From a virus, in the UHGV virus genome UHGV-0173462: a stretch of DNA of 44,341 nt, one strand, 5' to 3'. Positions 11,189 to 39,899 of this stretch are shown here, piece after piece (the stretch's first letter is position 1; the number at the start of each line of letters is the position of its first letter). Under the pieces are notes generated by a model, which searched no databases, had not been told where the DNA came from, and saw only the letters and a list, made by a program, of their open reading frames with translations. Both the position numbers and the translations under genes were made by a program.

Positions 11189-11869
11189 ATGGTGTATATG
11201 TATGAACCATTCACTCACACAGTGACTAAGACAGACCTATCTCATTTGCACAACATTACAGGTATTCCACTAAACACACTGTGGTATCAAAAGGAACGTG
11301 GCACATATAACGATAAATTGAAGTGCTTCTTTACTGACACAATGCCGAGAATGAATAAGAAACAGGAGTTTAACGAAAGAGTTGTAGCAAAAGATGAAAT
11401 TTGGAAGTACAGCGAGAAGTATGATCTATACGTAAGTAACTTAGGCAGAATGAAAAGACCTGATGGTAAATATAAATTTGCGAATGGTTGTAACGGTATT
11501 TCCACAGTTATTTATAAGAATAAGAAGTATCGTGCAGCAGATATTGTATATGAAACGTTTATCGGTAACTTAAAAAACGGATCACACGCATATCCGAAAG
11601 ATAGTAGATACAACAACTTTATTGCAGATAACCTATTCCAATCTACATTACAAAAATATAGAGTGTATCGCAGAAATAAAGGTGTATCTAAACCAGTATA
11701 TCTAGTAGATAGCGACAACCAAATTGTTGAAGAATTCGCAAGTACAGTAGAAGCTCAAAAATTATTGTTCATAGACAGACGGAATATCGCAAGGAAGTGC
11801 AACCGTAAACATGTAAGTGACGGATTGATGTATATGTGGGCAGACGAATACGAGAAGATGAACGCATGA
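11189..11869 (+). CDS. Free-standing HNH homing-endonuclease-like protein (NUMOD4 + HNH_3-like + C-terminal DNA-binding motif)
   Basis: WKYSEKYDLYVSNLGRMKRPDGKY (NUMOD4-like); GSHAYPKDSRYNNFIADNL (HNH_3-like H..N..N). Confidence 0.6.
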   Translation: MVYMYEPFTHTVTKTDLSHLHNITGIPLNTLWYQKERGTYNDKLKCFFTDTMPRMNKKQEFNERVVAKDEIWKYSEKYDLYVSNLGRMKRPDGKYKFANGCNGISTVIYKNKKYRAADIVYETFIGNLKNGSHAYPKDSRYNNFIADNLFQSTLQKYRVYRRNKGVSKPVYLVDSDNQIVEEFASTVEAQKLLFIDRRNIARKCNRKHVSDGLMYMWADEYEKMNA

Positions 11870-16467: not shown

Positions 16468-16848
16468 ATGACTAACATGCAAAATAACGCAACATTCGGG
16501 GCGTACTTGGAATTAACTAAGAAGCAACAAGAATATATACGCTTGAAGAACGAAACAGATTTAGCAGAGGGAGAAATAGCTGCTGAAATTGACGTTAACC
16601 GTTCTACTATATCTCGTTGGAAACATAATGATAAATTCAGAGAAGGCTTTAAAGGTTACCAAGCAGAGCATTTGTCTAAGCAGGTACCTAAAGCCTTACA
16701 AACGATGATTAACTTATTAGACGCTAAAAGTGAGCTAGTACGCTATCAAGCCTCTAAAGATATATTGGATCGTACAGGTTATACTCCTGTAGAAAGACAA
16801 CAAATCGAAACGACTGCGACGGTGCATTTCGACGATGATATCAATTAA
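16468..16848 (+). CDS. terS: Terminase small subunit
   Basis: 126 aa, HTH-like N-terminus, immediately upstream of and overlapping terL; RBS TAGGTGG. Confidence 0.75.
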   Translation: MTNMQNNATFGAYLELTKKQQEYIRLKNETDLAEGEIAAEIDVNRSTISRWKHNDKFREGFKGYQAEHLSKQVPKALQTMINLLDAKSELVRYQASKDILDRTGYTPVERQQIETTATVHFDDDIN

Positions 16849-18097
16849 ACTGTCCGAACTGTTACCTAAACACTTTCATAGCTTATGGAAGGCAACTAAG
16901 GATAGAGAGAAACTCAACATAGTAGCTAAAGGTGGACGTGGTAGTGGTAAGTCATCTGACATATCTATTATCATTACACAGTTAATCATGCGTTATCCTA
17001 TGAATGCAGTTGTAGTACGTAAGACAGATAATACATTAGCTACATCAGTGTTTGAACAAATCAAGTGGGCGATAGAAGAACAAAAGGTGTCACACCTGTT
17101 CAAAGTTAAAGTGTCGCCAATGGAAATCACATATGTACCCAGAGGGAATCGGATTATCTTTAGAGGGGCACAAAACCCTGAACGATTAAAGTCGTTAAAA
17201 GATAGTCGGTTCCCTTTTTCTATCATGTGGATAGAGGAGTTGGCAGAATTTAAGACAGAGGACGAAGTTACAACAATTACTAACTCTATGCTACGTGGTG
17301 AATTAGATGACGGATTGTTCTACAAGTTTTTCTTTAGCTACAATCCACCTAAGAGAAAACAATCGTGGGTTAACAAAAAATACGAAACCTCATTCCAACC
17401 GGATAATACATTCGTACATCATTCAACGTACTTAGATAACCCTTTTATATCTAAACAGTTTATACAAGAGGCAGAGAGTGCGAAAGAACGTAACGAACAA
17501 CGTTATCGTTGGGAGTATATGGGGGAAGCGATAGGGAGTGGCGTTGTGCCGTTTAACAATTTACAAATAGAGAAGATACCAGATGAGTTGTACGATAATT
17601 TCGATAATATAAGAAATGGTGCCGATTTTGGTTATGCTGCTGACCCGTTAGCATTTACTAGGTGGCATTACGATAAAAAGAAACGCATTTTATACGCTAT
17701 GGATGAAATATATGGTGTACAAATGAGTAACAGAGAATTCGCTAAAGAATTATGGAAACGCGGTTATCAATCAGATGAAATATATTGTGACTCCGCAGAA
17801 CCGAAGTCAATTGATGAATTAAAAAAAGAACATGGGATTAAGCGTGTCAAAGGTGTTAAGAAAGGCCCTGACAGTGTTGAATACGGGGAACAATGGTTAA
17901 ATGATTTAGACGCTATTGTTATTGACCCTAACAGAACACCTAACATAGCAAGAGAGTTTGAAAATATCGACTATGAAACGGACAAAGACGGTAACGTTAA
18001 ACCGAGATTAGAAGATAAAGACAATCACAGTATCGATTCCTGCAGGTACGCGCTCTCTAGAGACATGAGGCAGAATAAACTTAGCATACTTACGTAA
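16835..18097 (+). CDS. terL: Terminase large subunit (PBSX/Terminase_3-like, headful/pac type)
   Basis: Walker A AKGGRGSGKSSD, Walker B and nuclease motifs; 420 aa. Confidence 0.9.
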   Translation: MISIKLSELLPKHFHSLWKATKDREKLNIVAKGGRGSGKSSDISIIITQLIMRYPMNAVVVRKTDNTLATSVFEQIKWAIEEQKVSHLFKVKVSPMEITYVPRGNRIIFRGAQNPERLKSLKDSRFPFSIMWIEELAEFKTEDEVTTITNSMLRGELDDGLFYKFFFSYNPPKRKQSWVNKKYETSFQPDNTFVHHSTYLDNPFISKQFIQEAESAKERNEQRYRWEYMGEAIGSGVVPFNNLQIEKIPDELYDNFDNIRNGADFGYAADPLAFTRWHYDKKKRILYAMDEIYGVQMSNREFAKELWKRGYQSDEIYCDSAEPKSIDELKKEHGIKRVKGVKKGPDSVEYGEQWLNDLDAIVIDPNRTPNIAREFENIDYETDKDGNVKPRLEDKDNHSIDSCRYALSRDMRQNKLSILT

Positions 18098-22599: not shown

Positions 22600-22921
22600 T
22601 CCATTAAATGAGTTTCCTCATACAATCGAATTAGGCTCAAGAGAGGTTGTAGGAGAGTATCCGCGTGAACAAGAGCGCTTTAAGAGCGAAAAAACAATAC
22701 AAGGATTTATGGATACGCCTACTTCATCTGAACAACTCAAGTTTCATCAAATGAACCAATCATACGACAGAAACCTATATACGCCGTACAGCCTGCCAAT
22801 AACTAACACAAACTTATTTAAATACAACGGTAAAACTTACGAAGTAGTAGGAGAACCTGTCGACCAAGGCGGACAACAAGAAATCAACTTAACAAGATTG
22901 AGAGAATGTCCTATTGGCTAA
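22592..22921 (+). CDS. Head-tail adaptor / head closure protein
   Basis: 109 aa; position and size. Confidence 0.6.
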   Translation: MFNPLNEFPHTIELGSREVVGEYPREQERFKSEKTIQGFMDTPTSSEQLKFHQMNQSYDRNLYTPYSLPITNTNLFKYNGKTYEVVGEPVDQGGQQEINLTRLRECPIG

Positions 22922-23150
22922 GGTTAAATACGGAAATTGGGATTTAGTTAAGGAACTTGAGGAGTTTGAAAAAGAAACGATTAGATGGGCTAAAAAAGGT
23001 ATAGCCAAGACAACAACAATTATTCACAATTCAATAGTTAGTAACATGCCTGTTGATACCGGTTATCTTAGAGAAAGTGTTTCTATGGACTTTAAGAAAG
23101 GCGGGTTAACAGGCGTTATTAATATTGGTAGTGAGTACGCGATAAAACGT
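22914..23150 (+). CDS. HK97 gp10-like tail-component protein, exon 1 (as an unspliced ORF it runs to 23180)
   Basis: MAKVKYGNWD...NMPVDTGYLRESVS matches the gp10-family motif aPvDTGnLR.S; ORF lacks the conserved C-terminal AQPF..PA motif, which is found 1 kb downstream. Confidence 0.6.
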
Positions 23151-23266
23151 ATGTCGCAATTACTGGCAACAGTAATTTAAAAATCGAGCAAAATCGGTGG
23201 AACTCTTTATATGTGTAGTTGTATATTGATTACGGTACAGGTATAATATACATGAGGTGATTATAT

Positions 23267-23938
23267 TTGAAACGTAATAATAAAGGTCAGTTTGTAAAAG
23301 GTATGAATATTAAAGATAAAACAAATGAGAGGCATGGAAGATTAAAAGTAATTGGAATATCAGATAAAAGGTCCGGCAGAAAAACTTATTGGAACTGCTT
23401 GTGTGATTGCGGTAATAAAGTGACTGTAAGAAGTGATTGTTTAGGTACTACTAAGTCGTGTGGTTGTTTAAAGAAAACGAAAGCACCGCTTAATCTAGGA
23501 AAAACTAATTTGCATGGTTTAACCCACCATCCAGTATATGGAAGATGGAATGCTATGATAAATAGATGCGAAAACCCTAACACGTTAGCTTATAAAAATT
23601 ACGGCGAACGTGGTATTAAAGTATGTGATGAATGGCACGACCTAAAAGAATTCATTCGCTGGAGTGAGGAAAATGGCTTTAACAATAAATTAACATTAGA
23701 AAGAATAGATGTTAATGGCAACTACGAACCATCAAACTGTAAATGGATCCCTATGAAAGAACAGTATTATAATAAACGCACTTCTGTTTATCACACATAT
23801 AATGGAGAAACAAAAACTACAATGCAATGGACTCATGAATTAAATATACCTTTACACAAAGTGTCAAAATACAAGAAAAACAATATACCTTTTGTAGATT
23901 TGATTAGAGAATATAAAGACAACACCGAGGTAACTTAA
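23267..23938 (+). CDS. HNH homing endonuclease (AP2/HNH_3-like), TTG start
   Basis: Zn-ribbon CLCDCGNKVTVRSDCLGTTKSCGC and LERIDVNGNYEPSNCKWIP (HNH/AP2-like); RBS TGAGGTGA; own promoter TTGTAT-17-TATAAT (23220-23248). Confidence 0.75.
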   Translation: MKRNNKGQFVKGMNIKDKTNERHGRLKVIGISDKRSGRKTYWNCLCDCGNKVTVRSDCLGTTKSCGCLKKTKAPLNLGKTNLHGLTHHPVYGRWNAMINRCENPNTLAYKNYGERGIKVCDEWHDLKEFIRWSEENGFNNKLTLERIDVNGNYEPSNCKWIPMKEQYYNKRTSVYHTYNGETKTTMQWTHELNIPLHKVSKYKKNNIPFVDLIREYKDNTEVT

Positions 23939-24009
23939 TAGATTGCGGAAGGCTATTAAGCACCGTAGAGCGTACCAGTTGAATAAATATAATACTGGCA
24001 AGAGTGTTC

Positions 24010-24035
24010 GACAACCAATAACGGTTGTCTTTTTT
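24010..24035 (+). terminator. Rho-independent terminator after HNH ORF (GACAACC-aataac-GGTTGTC + TTTTTT)
   Basis: Perfect 7-bp stem + T6. Confidence 0.6.
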
Positions 24036-24119
24036 ATTGGTTGAAAATGTACGCCGAACTTACAGGTGACTGTAAGAAGTAAAGGATAAAAAGCCTTTAC
24101 GATAACAAGATGATACGTG

Positions 24120-24296
24120 AATTACGGTACAGGGATATACGCAGTCGGTCCAGGTGGTAGTCGTGCAAAGAATATCCCGTGGCGTTACAAAGACGCAGAC
24201 GGACATTGGCACACAACTAAAGGGCAACATGCACAACCTTTTTGGGAACCAGCAATTGATGAAGGTAGAGCGTTTTTCAATAAGTATTTTTCATAA
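24120..24296 (+). CDS. HK97 gp10-like tail-component protein, exon 2 (58 codons, no own start/RBS)
   Basis: NYGTGIYAVGPGGSRAKNIPWRYKDADGHWHTTKGQHAQPFWEPAIDEGRAFFNKYFS* carries the gp10-family C-terminal motif AQPF..PA; same frame as exon 1; spliced product 137 aa. Confidence 0.5.
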   Translation, partial: NYGTGIYAVGPGGSRAKNIPWRYKDADGHWHTTKGQHAQPFWEPAIDEGRAFFNKYFS

Positions 24297-37270: not shown

Positions 37271-37701
37271 AAGAACAAAGAATTACTAGCTTAGAAAAAC
37301 GTATGGATAAAGCCGAAACTAATATAGATAAAACGACTGAAAAGTTATACAAAGTTGATGAAAAACATGACGATAGATATACGGAAACGATACAAGTTAT
37401 TACAGAATTAAAAGGTACATCTGCTAACACTGAAAAAAACACGGATAGAATGGCGAATAGTATAGAAGGACTCGTGAAAGAATTGAGACAATCAAATTCT
37501 AATACAAATAGGCGTTTTGAAGAAGTTAACGAAGAAGTAAGGGATATCAGAAAAACATTAGATAACAAGATTGAAGATAAGCAATTTATATTGGAAGAAA
37601 AGAAATTATCTAATAAAACTTTAGGCGCTATACTTGTAGGTGCATTCGCACTGTTAGAAACATTAAGTAAAGTAATTGCCCCTTTGCTATTTGGAAACTA
37701 A
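37255..37701 (+). CDS. DUF2951-like coiled-coil protein with C-terminal TM anchor
   Basis: 148 aa; family typical upstream of tail lysin genes in staphylococcal siphoviruses. Confidence 0.55.
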   Translation: MQKTIEEQRITSLEKRMDKAETNIDKTTEKLYKVDEKHDDRYTETIQVITELKGTSANTEKNTDRMANSIEGLVKELRQSNSNTNRRFEEVNEEVRDIRKTLDNKIEDKQFILEEKKLSNKTLGAILVGAFALLETLSKVIAPLLFGN

Positions 37702-37751
37702 GTCGGTACTTATGTATCGGCTTTTTATTATGCCAGAAATGAGGTGGATAT

Positions 37752-37865
37752 ATGGGATTACCTAGCCCTAAAAAAAGAAAACCTACTGCTTCGGAAGTTG
37801 CAGCATGGGCAAAAAGAATGATTGGCAGAAGAGTTGATGTAGATGGTTATTATGGCGCCCAGTGT
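37752..37865 (+). CDS. Tail-associated cell-wall hydrolase (CHAP + glucosaminidase), exon 1 (38 codons ending ...GAQC)
   Basis: MGLPSPKKRKPTASEVAAWAKRMIGRRVDVDGYYGAQC then in-frame stop 2 codons later; RBS TGAGGTGG; contains the CHAP catalytic Cys. Confidence 0.7.
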
Positions 37866-38111
37866 TGAATCTAGCACCTTTGATGAGTAATCATCATAGC
37901 AAACTCCTCTAATTCATGGGAACCCTAAACAAGTTATGTTGTAGGCAATCATGAGCGAAGCCTATAAATAGGAACGTGCAACGACTAGTCGAAAGACGTA
38001 CACTCAAGCGAGTGGAAACGGGGAGCAACCTAATAGGTTGATGATATAGTCTGAACATTCATAGAAATATGAAGAAGGTGACAAGTGGCGATTGTCATCG
38101 TAACAAAATTG
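37866..38111 (+). ncRNA. ORF-less group I intron (~246 nt; boundaries +/-2 nt) in the tail-lysin CHAP domain
   Basis: R-like GUGCAACGACUAGU (37974-37990) and S-like GAUAUAGUCU (38043-38053) P7 elements; GNRA hairpins TGATGA-GUAA-TCATCA (37881-37896) and TTCATA-GAAA-TATGAA (38058-38073); 5' exon ends in U, intron ends in G; removal restores GAQC|WDLPNY. Confidence 0.75.
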
Positions 38112-39899
38112 TGGGATTTACCAAACTACATTTTCAATAGATATTGGCATTTCAAAACAACAGGAAATGCGATTGCTATGGCGTGGTATAGATATCCTAA
38201 AGGGTTCAAATTCTATAGGAATACTAGAAACTTTGTTCCGAAACCTGGTGACATGGCAGTTTGGGGAAAGGGTTCCTTTAATAACGGTGTTGGTCACACA
38301 GCTGTTGTAATTGGTCCATCTACTAAAAGTTACTTCACTAGTGTGGATCAAAATTGGATTGGTGCAAATAGTTATACAGGCTCACCTGGCGCGAAAATTA
38401 AACATAGTTATAACGGTATAAGCGGATTTGTCAGACCTCCCTACCACGCAGAAACTAAGAAACCATCGAAACCAAGTAGTACACCGTCCAAACATTCTAA
38501 TGACAACGCTCCTAAAAACACAAAAGAACAAACAAAACCTATAACTAAAGAGATTACCAAAGTTTCCTATACATCATTCGCATACGATTTAGACGATGAT
38601 TTGGAATATATTTATCATTACATGGTTGAAGGACAAAAGTTGATAGGGAAGGTAAAAGGTATATATATCAAAGAGAGTACACATATGCGTTCTGTTGAAG
38701 AATTGTATTTACAACGTAATAAATATGTGAATGAAGATGAATACCCTCATGTATATATTGACCGTGAGCGTGTATGGACACCTAGACCTGATTCAGAAGA
38801 AGCACCAGAACATCCAGGTTGGCTTGTTATGGAAGTTTGCGGAGGACAAACGGATAGTAAACGCCAATTCATGCTCAATCAAATCAGAGCGTTAATCTAC
38901 GGCGTTTGGTTACTAAGTTGGAGTAAGGTAAAACTTTCTGAATCGTCAATCAAAGCAGATCCTAACATATGGCGTTCTATGAAAGATTTAATCAATTACG
39001 ACTTAATCAAAAATGGTATTCCTGATGAAAGTAAATATAAAGAAGTCGAGAAGAAAATTATCGGTTTATATTTGAAAAGAGATAAATTACTTACAGAAAC
39101 AATTACTACAACAACTACAAAGACAACGATAAAAATTAAACCTAAAACTTCGGTCGACAATCCTTCACAGAACGATAAGTCGACAGGCAAAACGACAAAC
39201 AGAACTTCAAATAAACCTCGTGTAGTTGTAGAGAAAAGTAAATATACTTTCCAACAAGCGCTTAATGCACAAATGGCTCATGGCATGCCTCAAAAATCTT
39301 ATAGTTGGGGTTGGGGCAATGCTTCTAGGTCACAAACAAGTAAGTATATGAATCCTAACACTATATGGAATAGTTCAACTCAACGCTATCAAATGCTAGA
39401 TTTAGGAAAATATCAAGGTATATCAGTAAGTAAGTTGAATAAGATACTTAAAGGTAAAGGCACTTTATCTGGACAAGGTAAAGCTTTTGCAGACGGTTGT
39501 AAGAAGTACAATGTAAATGAAATTTACTTAATCGCTCACGCTTTCTTAGAGAGTGGATATGGCCGTAGTAACTTTGCTAGTGGACGTTATGGTATCTACA
39601 ACTACTTTGGTATTGCAGCTTACGACAACAACCCTAACGCTTCTATAGCATACGCTAGACGTCAAGGGTGGACGAGTCCACGTAATGGTATTATAGGTGG
39701 CGCTAAGTTCGTTAGAAAACAATTCTTCAACAAAGGTAAAAACACATTATACAGAATGCGTTGGAACCCTAAAAACCCTGGACATATGCAATACGCTACT
39801 GCGATTGAATGGTGTAACTTCCAAGCTACAACTATTAGTAGCTTATACAAAAAAGTAGGTGCAAAAGGTATGTACTACATTAGAGATAAATATAGATAA
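38112..39899 (+). CDS. Tail-associated cell-wall hydrolase, exon 2 (rest of CHAP domain + C-terminal glucosaminidase domain)
   Basis: WDLPNYIFNRYW...GHTAVVIG (CHAP His) ... YLIAHAFLESGYGRS...YNYFGIAAYD (glucosaminidase). Confidence 0.8.
   Translation, partial: WDLPNYIFNRYWHFKTTGNAIAMAWYRYPKGFKFYRNTRNFVPKPGDMAVWGKGSFNNGVGHTAVVIGPSTKSYFTSVDQNWIGANSYTGSPGAKIKHSYNGISGFVRPPYHAETKKPSKPSSTPSKHSNDNAPKNTKEQTKPITKEITKVSYTSFAYDLDDDLEYIYHYMVEGQKLIGKVKGIYIKESTHMRSVEELYLQRNKYVNEDEYPHVYIDRERVWTPRPDSEEAPEHPGWLVMEVCGGQTDSKRQFMLNQIRALIYGVWLLSWSKVKLSESSIKADPNIWRSMKDLINYDLIKNGIPDESKYKEVEKKIIGLYLKRDKLLTETITTTTTKTTIKIKPKTSVDNPSQNDKSTGKTTNRTSNKPRVVVEKSKYTFQQALNAQMAHGMPQKSYSWGWGNASRSQTSKYMNPNTIWNSSTQRYQMLDLGKYQGISVSKLNKILKGKGTLSGQGKAFADGCKKYNVNEIYLIAHAFLESGYGRSNFASGRYGIYNYFGIAAYDNNPNASIAYARRQGWTSPRNGIIGGAKFVRKQFFNKGKNTLYRMRWNPKNPGHMQYATAIEWCNFQATTISSLYKKVGAKGMYYIRDKYR

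Follow-up and report, generated by a model that had tools for sequence, protein, structure and literature searches.

We describe a group I intron of subgroup IA type, 246 nucleotides (nt) long and without an open reading frame (ORF) of its own, that interrupts hyd, the tail-associated cell wall hydrolase gene, at positions 37866 to 38111 of the virus genome UHGV-0173462 (the window, i.e., the whole stretch of 44,341 nt that was analyzed). We put the probability that this element represents a self-splicing, ORF-less member of this subgroup at about 93%. The data presented here establish the identity, boundaries, structure, and conservation of the intron and the reading frame that is restored when it is removed. 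The intron as such is already known from the phages PH15 (2007) and E72 (2021); however, the hyd allele in which it lies in the window looks like a recombinant, which goes beyond the literature consulted and represents a modest lead.

The short ORF that opens the gene (37752 to 37868) encodes MGLPSPKKRKPTASEVAAWAKRMIGRRVDVDGYYGAQC, 38 residues of which the last four are GAQC, and then reaches a TGA codon. The downstream frame, listed from a GTG codon at 38085, reads ...KLWDLPNYIF, with WDLPNY beginning at 38112. A preliminary description of this DNA, made from the sequence alone, had joined these frames at WDLPNY across an intervening stretch of some 246 nt; both frames are as it described, and its interval is exact to the base. 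The uninterrupted genes of the phages phiIPLA7 and 48 (vB_SepS_48) are exactly 246 nt shorter and read GGCGCCCAGTGT followed directly by TGGGAT(T/C)TACCAAAC; the uninterrupted junction is CAGTGT/TGGGAT (a slash marks the site of insertion here and below), and the intron-less target sequence is GGTTATTATGGCGCCCAGTGTTGGGATTTACC. A TG repeat at both ends permits three registers of the 246-nt block against these alleles, and only 37866 to 38111 gives both a U at exon position -1 (U37865) and a G as the final intron base (G38111), the two terminal bases that the preliminary description had pointed out. Because group I chemistry requires this U and G, the intron-less alleles and the chemistry together fix the boundaries. 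Shifts of the block by +1 or +2 were rejected, since the terminal G or the U at -1 is lost. We also rejected G38074, where the Rfam model ends, as the 3' splice site: it lies 37 nt from 38112, which is out of frame, and the deletion size in the intron-less alleles is 246 nt. G38111 (omega-G) is invariant in all 10 aligned homologues. The intron adjoins the 3' side of the Cys38 codon (TGT/TGG) in phase 0; the proposal that the gene is split exactly at the catalytic cysteine codon therefore holds as to the neighborhood of the nucleophile, but the insertion lies directly after that codon rather than within it.

There is no sense-strand ORF of at least 25 amino acids inside the intron. The only ORFs within it are mechanical and antisense, one of 49 amino acids (37909 to 38058), which has no Pfam match, and one of 26 amino acids. 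The earlier statement that the interval contains no ORF is thus correct for the sense strand and for ORFs of endonuclease size but needs to be qualified for the 49-residue antisense frame. As stated there, no homing endonuclease gene is present; the interval lacks the intron-encoded homing endonuclease ORF that marks a mobile (homing) intron.

A scan of the whole 44 kb against Rfam returned a single match above threshold, that of the group I intron model RF00028 at 37855 to 38074, which spanned the full model (positions 1 to 253) with a score of 93.8 bits (E value, 5.2e-23; gathering score, 50 bits). This covariance-model search was the check that had been suggested for the group I assignment, which is borne out by the score, by covariation that includes the exon and guide sequences of P1, and by the exact restoration of the frame relative to the intron-less alleles. 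A chance origin of these signals is excluded.

The helices listed in Table 1 (70 pairs) were hand drawn, with the sequence and the Rfam alignment as guides, and were compared in hand-made alignments of 10 homologues, which form 9 distinct rows: the window; PH15; the hyd introns of StB12, IME1323_01, IME1318_01, and HOB 14.1.R1; and four introns of the tail tube gene region from Kayvirus, Silviavirus, and the unclassified Twortvirinae phage PG-2021_10. Standard pairing was found in 96.0% of the 627 cells, versus 35 to 46% when the 3' partners were slid by 1 to 3 columns, and changes on both sides (compensatory changes) were found in 31 of the 70 pairs; none of 500 shuffles reached these pairing and covariation values. 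The U37865·G37874 wobble, which marks the 5' splice site, is invariant in all 9 distinct sequences, and three pairs of P1 covary with the 5' exons (GUGU/GCAC, GAGU/GCUC, and GCAU/GUGC). The R-like motif GUGCAACGACUAGU (37976 to 37989), the S-like motif GAUAUAGUCU (38043 to 38052), and the P7 strands that they contribute were all found as the preliminary description had read them, as were its GNRA-capped hairpins (GUAA in P2 and GAAA in both P7.1 and P9). In the Rfam alignment, the P7.1/P7.2 region appears as a 29-nt insertion flanked by the P7 5' strand and the P3 3' strand, and it is because of these extra helices that the intron was assigned to subgroup IA, the usual group I type in phages. 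An unconstrained minimum free energy fold (z = -3.3) recovered all helices except the pseudoknotted P7. In that fold, the exon sequence CCCA (37858 to 37861), just 5' of P1, pairs with UGGG (38112 to 38115) at the start of exon 2, which could be an exon-exon contact that aligns the splice sites or a coincidence.

Some observations temper this interpretation. P7 does not vary in the alignment and thus yields no covariation evidence, either for or against; its support comes from sequence conservation and the Rfam alignment. P10, the helix by which the 3' splice site is selected, is short and ambiguous, with GGAUU (38114 to 38118) facing AAUCU (37868 to 37872) or, alternatively, UGGG facing UCUA, and it was excluded from the covariation test. 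Furthermore, we infer splicing in the window phage from the structure and from an experiment on PH15 that is known to us second-hand.

Table 1. Coordinates of the hyd gene, its intron, and related features
Feature	Position	Strand	Description and basis
hyd exon 1	37752..37865	+	38 codons ending ...GYYGAQC, with Cys38 as the CHAP nucleophile; ORF, intron-less alleles, and LysK alignment
Group I intron	37866..38111	+	246 nt, ORF-less, subgroup IA type; starts with in-frame UGA and ends with G38111; RF00028, intron-less alleles, covariation, and fold
hyd exon 2	38112..39899	+	WDLPNY... through the rest of CHAP, linker, and glucosaminidase to the stop; intron-less alleles and Pfam
P1	37862-37867 / 37872-37877	+	Exon GUGU and intron UG with the internal guide sequence UAGCAC
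P2	37881-37896	+	GUAA loop
P3	37904-37909 / 38020-38025	+	100% paired, 3 compensatory pairs; encloses P4, P5-P5a, and P6
P4	37914-37919 / 37949-37954	+	100% paired
P5-P5a	37924-37945	+	
P6	37955-37977	+	
P7	37983-37987 / 38047-38051	+	R/S pairing, pseudoknot with P3; invariant; encloses P7.1, P7.2, and P8
P7.1	37988-37997	+	GAAA loop; 3/3 pairs compensatory
P7.2	38001-38014	+	4/5 pairs compensatory
P8	38027-38039	+	
P9	38058-38073	+	GAAA loop
P9.1	38077-38099	+	Loop holds GTG 38085
Tract identical to BE21	37775..38245	+	471 nt: intron with flanks of 91 nt (exon 1) and 134 nt (exon 2)
Shine-Dalgarno-like sequence	37741..37747	+	GAGGTGG, 4 nt 5' of the hyd ATG; read from the sequence
Terminator-like hairpin	37700..37723	+	10-pair stem, then TTTATTAT (T-run); consensus match only
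Second insert in the window	23144-24112		969 nt; U before the insert, G as last base; P1 GCGAU/GUCGC
BE28 hyd intron	L005 1644-2626		983 nt
DW2 hyd intron	L076 377-725		349 nt, ORF-less; RF00028, 80 bits

Removal of the intron in silico yields a 1,902-nt ORF for a protein of 633 amino acids, and the correct annotation of the gene would be join(37752..37865,38112..39899). The spliced ORF is collinear with the intron-less genes found in phiIPLA7 and phage 48, with 97 to 98% identity at the DNA level; exon 1 alone shares 96.5% and 98.2% identity, respectively, with the first 114 nt of these genes, and the spliced protein is 98.1% identical to phiIPLA7 Hyd and 98.9% identical to phage 48 Hyd. The junction peptide, ...VDVDGYYGAQCWDLPNYIFNR, spans GAQC/WDLPNY. 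As the preliminary description had proposed, the product is a CHAP-glucosaminidase tail lysin: Pfam assigns PF05257 (CHAP) to residues 31 to 119 (36.3 bits; cutoff, 26) and PF01832 (glucosaminidase) to residues 495 to 615 (47.7 bits; cutoff, 30.2). In an alignment with the CHAP domain of LysK, Cys38 corresponds to Cys54 and the downstream GH motif corresponds to His117, and replacement of either LysK residue with alanine (e.g., C54A) abolishes activity (PMC4126393).

The window itself matches temperate Rockefellervirus siphoviruses of Staphylococcus epidermidis (PH15, phiIPLA5, phiIPLA7, E72, BE01, BE21, and others) at 88 to 98% identity in a mosaic pattern, and it is a PH15/phiIPLA5-like member of that genus. 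In these relatives, hyd lies between tail fiber genes on one side and the holin/endolysin cassette on the other and is named hydrolase, cell wall hydrolase Hyd, or tail-associated cell wall hydrolase; the window gene is predicted to encode the baseplate- or tail-associated cell wall hydrolase of a Rockefellervirus-like S. epidermidis siphovirus. The terminator-like hairpin listed in Table 1 lies between an upstream ORF for a 148-amino-acid coiled-coil protein and the ribosome-binding site of hyd, which suggests that hyd is expressed by read-through or from a separate start.

Splicing of the primary transcript would begin with the formation of P1, in which the internal guide sequence pairs with the four bases at the end of exon 1 and the two that open the intron, placing U37865·G37874 at the cleavage site. 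An external guanosine would then attack after U37865, and the freed 3'-OH of the exon would attack after the terminal G38111. The ligated message, ...GGC GCC CAG TGT/TGG GAT..., would be translated into the 633-residue CHAP and glucosaminidase protein. On unspliced RNA, ribosomes would immediately meet the UGA with which the intron opens and would make only the 38-residue peptide; because this UGA stops translation of unspliced RNA, a full-length enzyme that combines Cys38 with the histidine of the CHAP dyad would depend on splicing. An in-frame stop codon (UGA here and UAA elsewhere) forms the first three intron bases in every hyd copy.

Two other views of the intron's role were considered. 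The intron might be a dead remnant that no longer splices, in which case the phage would make a 38-residue peptide and, from GTG 38085, a structural baseplate protein of 604 amino acids that lacks the nucleophile. The GenBank records of phiIPLA5, BE01, and BE21 do annotate hyd in its unspliced form, a GAAGG/GGTG-like stretch precedes GTG 38085, and the DW2 paper (PMC4124061) cites work in which the hydrolase of phi11 proved dispensable for replication and mainly structural. However, most homologues, PH15 and StB12 among them, have GTA in place of GTG 38085, which itself falls in the P9.1 loop; we therefore rejected this GTG as a genuine start codon. The purine-rich stretch 5' of it is conserved even in the introns of tail tube genes and, because it is kept in introns of unrelated genes, is ribozyme sequence and not a ribosome-binding site. 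In addition, helices upheld by compensatory changes (P7 itself being invariant) are not expected of a dead remnant, and splicing in vivo has been reported for the PH15 copy, which is 98% identical. Taken together, these points make a dead remnant extremely improbable. It is also conceivable that the intron splices and has been retained as a regulator, with the efficiency of splicing (as set by the GTP level, translation, or timing) deciding between active Hyd and truncated or no Hyd. The conserved stop at the first intron codon would suit such a role, and a review points to the need for coordination between splicing and the expression of genes and to the possibility that introns are not neutral (PMC3984707). 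This role nevertheless seems quite unlikely to us: close relatives without the intron exist (phiIPLA7, phage 48, CNPH82, and others), its presence follows recombination history rather than any visible property of the phages, and no sensor element is evident.

That a splicing intron occupies this site agrees with earlier work. In the PH15 record (DQ834250 / NC_008723; Daniel, Bonnen & Fischetti 2007), the hydrolase gene ph24 was deposited as a two-piece join around a 246-nt intron that is identical to that of the window at 241 of 246 positions (98%), lies in the same gene at the same site (QC/WD), and is likewise ORF-less. Exactly two genes are joined in that record, ph24 and the large terminase gene ph2, the latter with a SegB-like endonuclease inside, and a passage of PMC7235722 cites Daniel 2007 as having shown splicing in vivo for both introns. 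The five substitutions in PH15 leave the conserved core positions untouched: with the change at intron nt 2, UGA becomes UAA and a G·U pair of P1 becomes A-U, and the others lie at nt 55, at nt 169 and 170 (which opens the innermost pair of P8), and at nt 222 (in the P9.1 loop). PH15 differs from the window in its flanking CHAP exon, which belongs to the other allele class described below, and in its endonuclease-bearing terL intron, which the window lacks; the large terminase gene of the window (16838 to 18094) is uninterrupted. Intron content therefore differs from gene to gene among these close relatives. For E72, a "noncoding intron" in hyd was mentioned by Fisarova et al. (2021; PMC8125051), and hyd is annotated as a join in the record (MW364975, vB_SepS_E72). 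The intron of the window is thus one more phage group I intron that has settled among those codons of its host gene that are best conserved and essential for catalysis, which is the expected pattern and opens no new question.

Introns 100% identical to that of the window occupy the same site of the same gene in phiIPLA5, BE01, BE21, E72, and E72m5, and a 98.4% identical copy occupies it in PG-2021_89. In phiIPLA5, BE01, BE21, and PG-2021_89, the intron is present but unannotated, and the genome paper on phiIPLA5 makes no mention of any intron. The hydrolase coding sequence (CDS) of phiIPLA5 (L001 3220-5043) begins at the GTG inside the intron, and that of BE21 (L006 1554-3701) begins within exon 2; across these two records and that of BE01, the hydrolase is started inside the intron or exon 2 or is split into fragments. 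An antisense "hypothetical protein" annotated inside the ribozyme in BE21 is probably spurious. The annotations of phiIPLA5, BE01, and BE21 consequently describe an enzyme without its nucleophile, which matters for the cloning of virion hydrolases as enzybiotics.

More distant homologues, 87 to 90% identical over 237 to 244 nt, interrupt the hyd genes of StB12, IME1323_01, IME1318_01, HOB 14.1.R1, and a contig of Staphylococcus petrasii CCUG 62727; like the window intron, they are ORF-less, start with an in-frame stop, and lie at the QC/WD site. These hyd genes are far more divergent and come from other groups of coagulase-negative staphylococcal phages, which for StB12, IME1323_01, and IME1318_01 means the Azeredovirinae. 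Every hyd copy of the intron, including those in divergent genes, is at the identical QC/WD position. StB12 hyd has a second group I intron between its CHAP- and glucosaminidase-coding parts (L007 2960-3227; RF00028, 94.8 bits), and the gene was deposited as three separate "peptidoglycan hydrolase" CDSs.

Outside hyd, ORF-less introns in the tail tube region of Herelleviridae (Kayvirus 812/PM36 and Silviavirus qdsa001) are 75 to 77% identical over the whole ribozyme and share its helices, including P7.1/P7.2 and P9.1, and its 3' end, ...CGUAACAAnnUUG. They differ from the window intron in host gene and in exon contexts, which their altered guide sequences fit, and in occurring in tandem, up to three in a row. 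This tail tube locus of Kayvirus and Silviavirus is the counterpart of the multi-intron gene orf142 of Twort; a crystal structure exists for the I2 ribozyme of Twort orf142. Two or three tandem ORF-less introns were seen in the tail tube region of qdsa001 (L014 1223-2019) and PM36 (L010 1447-2054); an exon of just 18 nt (1749 to 1766) lies between two of those in qdsa001, for which the record annotates no more than a "truncated capsid protein." An endonuclease-bearing version of the hyd intron was not found in INPHARED, among the GenBank copies or the 24 IMG/VR copies, or in the one match in a genome contig collection, which holds one genome per species and whose single match (S. petrasii) thus carries little information on frequency.

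The presence of the intron is polymorphic at a fixed site among close relatives. A search of IMG/VR for the 5' junction pattern gave 26 matches, 24 of them genuine intron-bearing contigs and 2 chance matches (L037 and L050); the strict pattern of the intron-less junction was found in 25 contigs, 9 of which have a Rockefellervirus-type hyd exon. The CHAP-coding part of exon 2 (nt 101 to 400) falls into two allele classes that are about 80% identical to each other. Among the GenBank phages, the first class comprises phiIPLA5, PH15, E72, and BE21, all intron bearing, and the second comprises the intron-less phiIPLA7 and phage 48 as well as BE28 and the window. In IMG/VR, the first class was found in 13 of 15 Rockefellervirus-type intron-bearing contigs and the second in 8 of 9 intron-less ones. 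Over nt 101 to 400, exon 2 of the window is 95% identical to the intron-less alleles, versus about 80 to 82% to the intron-bearing ones, and over nt 101 to 300 it shares just 78 to 81% identity with phiIPLA5, E72, and BE21, despite an intron that is 100% identical. With BE21, the window shares an identical tract of 471 nt (Table 1), beyond which it switches to the usually intron-less CHAP class. The window allele therefore looks like a recombinant in which the intron, with short flanks, has entered a class that usually lacks it, and recombination through the flanking exons appears to carry the intron from one hyd allele to another. This population-level signal of movement without an endonuclease of its own has some research value. 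The tract shared with BE21 is what one would expect of a recent intron transfer with short co-converted flanks; ordinary homologous recombination between co-resident prophages, without any homing-like process, could produce the same pattern.

The preliminary description had found the maintenance of an intron without a homing endonuclease gene interesting. Given the homologous ORF-less copies elsewhere, this is a general and known question that is not specific to this locus. As to how the intron spreads, we lean slightly toward passive inheritance, in which it passes from allele to allele only when co-infecting phages or prophages undergo ordinary homologous recombination and no endonuclease is involved. 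The absence of an endonuclease ORF from the intron, the absence of any ORF-bearing version among the IMG/VR and GenBank copies, and the heavy mosaicism of Rockefellervirus-like genomes all favor this route; however, the identical tract is short and centered on the insertion site, as in break-initiated gene conversion, although this is not proof. Mobilization in trans (collaborative homing), or retention because the intron breaks the target site of an endonuclease, is a possible but less probable route, suggested by analogy. In T4-like phages and cyanophages, ORF-less introns are known to home in trans (PMC3984707), the short conversion-like tract is consistent with such a route, and the CHAP motif hosts two unrelated group I introns at sites 6 nt apart, one of which carries an HNH-AP2 ORF in BE28 and is ORF-less in DW2. 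Candidate enzymes would be the HNH protein of the BE28/PG-2021_93 intron, 6 nt upstream, or the products of the HNH genes present in the window (11189 to 11866 and 23267 to 23938). It is rather doubtful that the intron is currently mobile, i.e., that the window records a fresh transfer into the normally intron-less CHAP class with some 90 nt of 5' exon and 130 nt of 3' exon, driven or selected by endonucleases acting in trans, and that the intron may compete with the BE28-type HNH intron, each blocking the target of the other.

The intron in hyd of BE28 and PG-2021_93 is a different group I intron of 983 nt, with an HNH-AP2 ORF, inserted at GA/QC, 6 nt upstream of the QC/WD site; the annotation shows nothing but separate small ORFs and an "HNH endonuclease" there. 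The Staphylococcus aureus phage DW2 (2014; PMC4124061) resembles the window in that its intron is ORF-less and interrupts the same catalytic motif in the same kind of gene, a CHAP and lysozyme-type tail hydrolase gene. The DW2/BE28 intron, at its GA/QC site, nevertheless belongs to a lineage different from that of the window. Two introns 6 nt apart in one motif would provide a convenient natural system in which to study trans-homing or intron competition in temperate staphylococcal phages.

A second gene of the window is also interrupted. The HK97-gp10-like tail gene, a homologue of PH15 ph11 and E72 gp12, encodes residues 1 to 77 at 22914 to 23144 and residues 78 to 137 at 24114 to 24293. The insert between them contains an ORF (23267 to 23938) for a protein of 223 amino acids that is 36% identical to the HNH protein of BE28; the ORF has promoter-like and terminator-like signals of its own and lies in the P5 loop. 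Homologues of the ORF are named HNH endonuclease in the BE28 and ROSA records, and in Pfam the window ORF has only a subthreshold match to CapR. Rfam gave no group I match on the insert (23144 to 24112), even at an E value of 1 or less. Homologous cores, each about 210 nt long, interrupt the same gene in ROSA and a Clostridioides phage and terL in a Sextaecvirus and in crAss-like phages; a crAss-like helicase gene has one as well. A hand-drawn structure (P3-P4-P6-P7-P7.1-P8-P9-P9.1 with a P3/P7 pseudoknot) is 98.4% paired, with compensatory changes in 33 of 48 pairs across the Staphylococcus, Clostridioides, and crAss-like homologues, and P1, with its U·G wobble, covaries with different exons. 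Because of this compensatory pairing and the covariation of P1, the insert is a group-I-type intron of a class that the Rfam model does not see, which makes it a modest lead in its own right.

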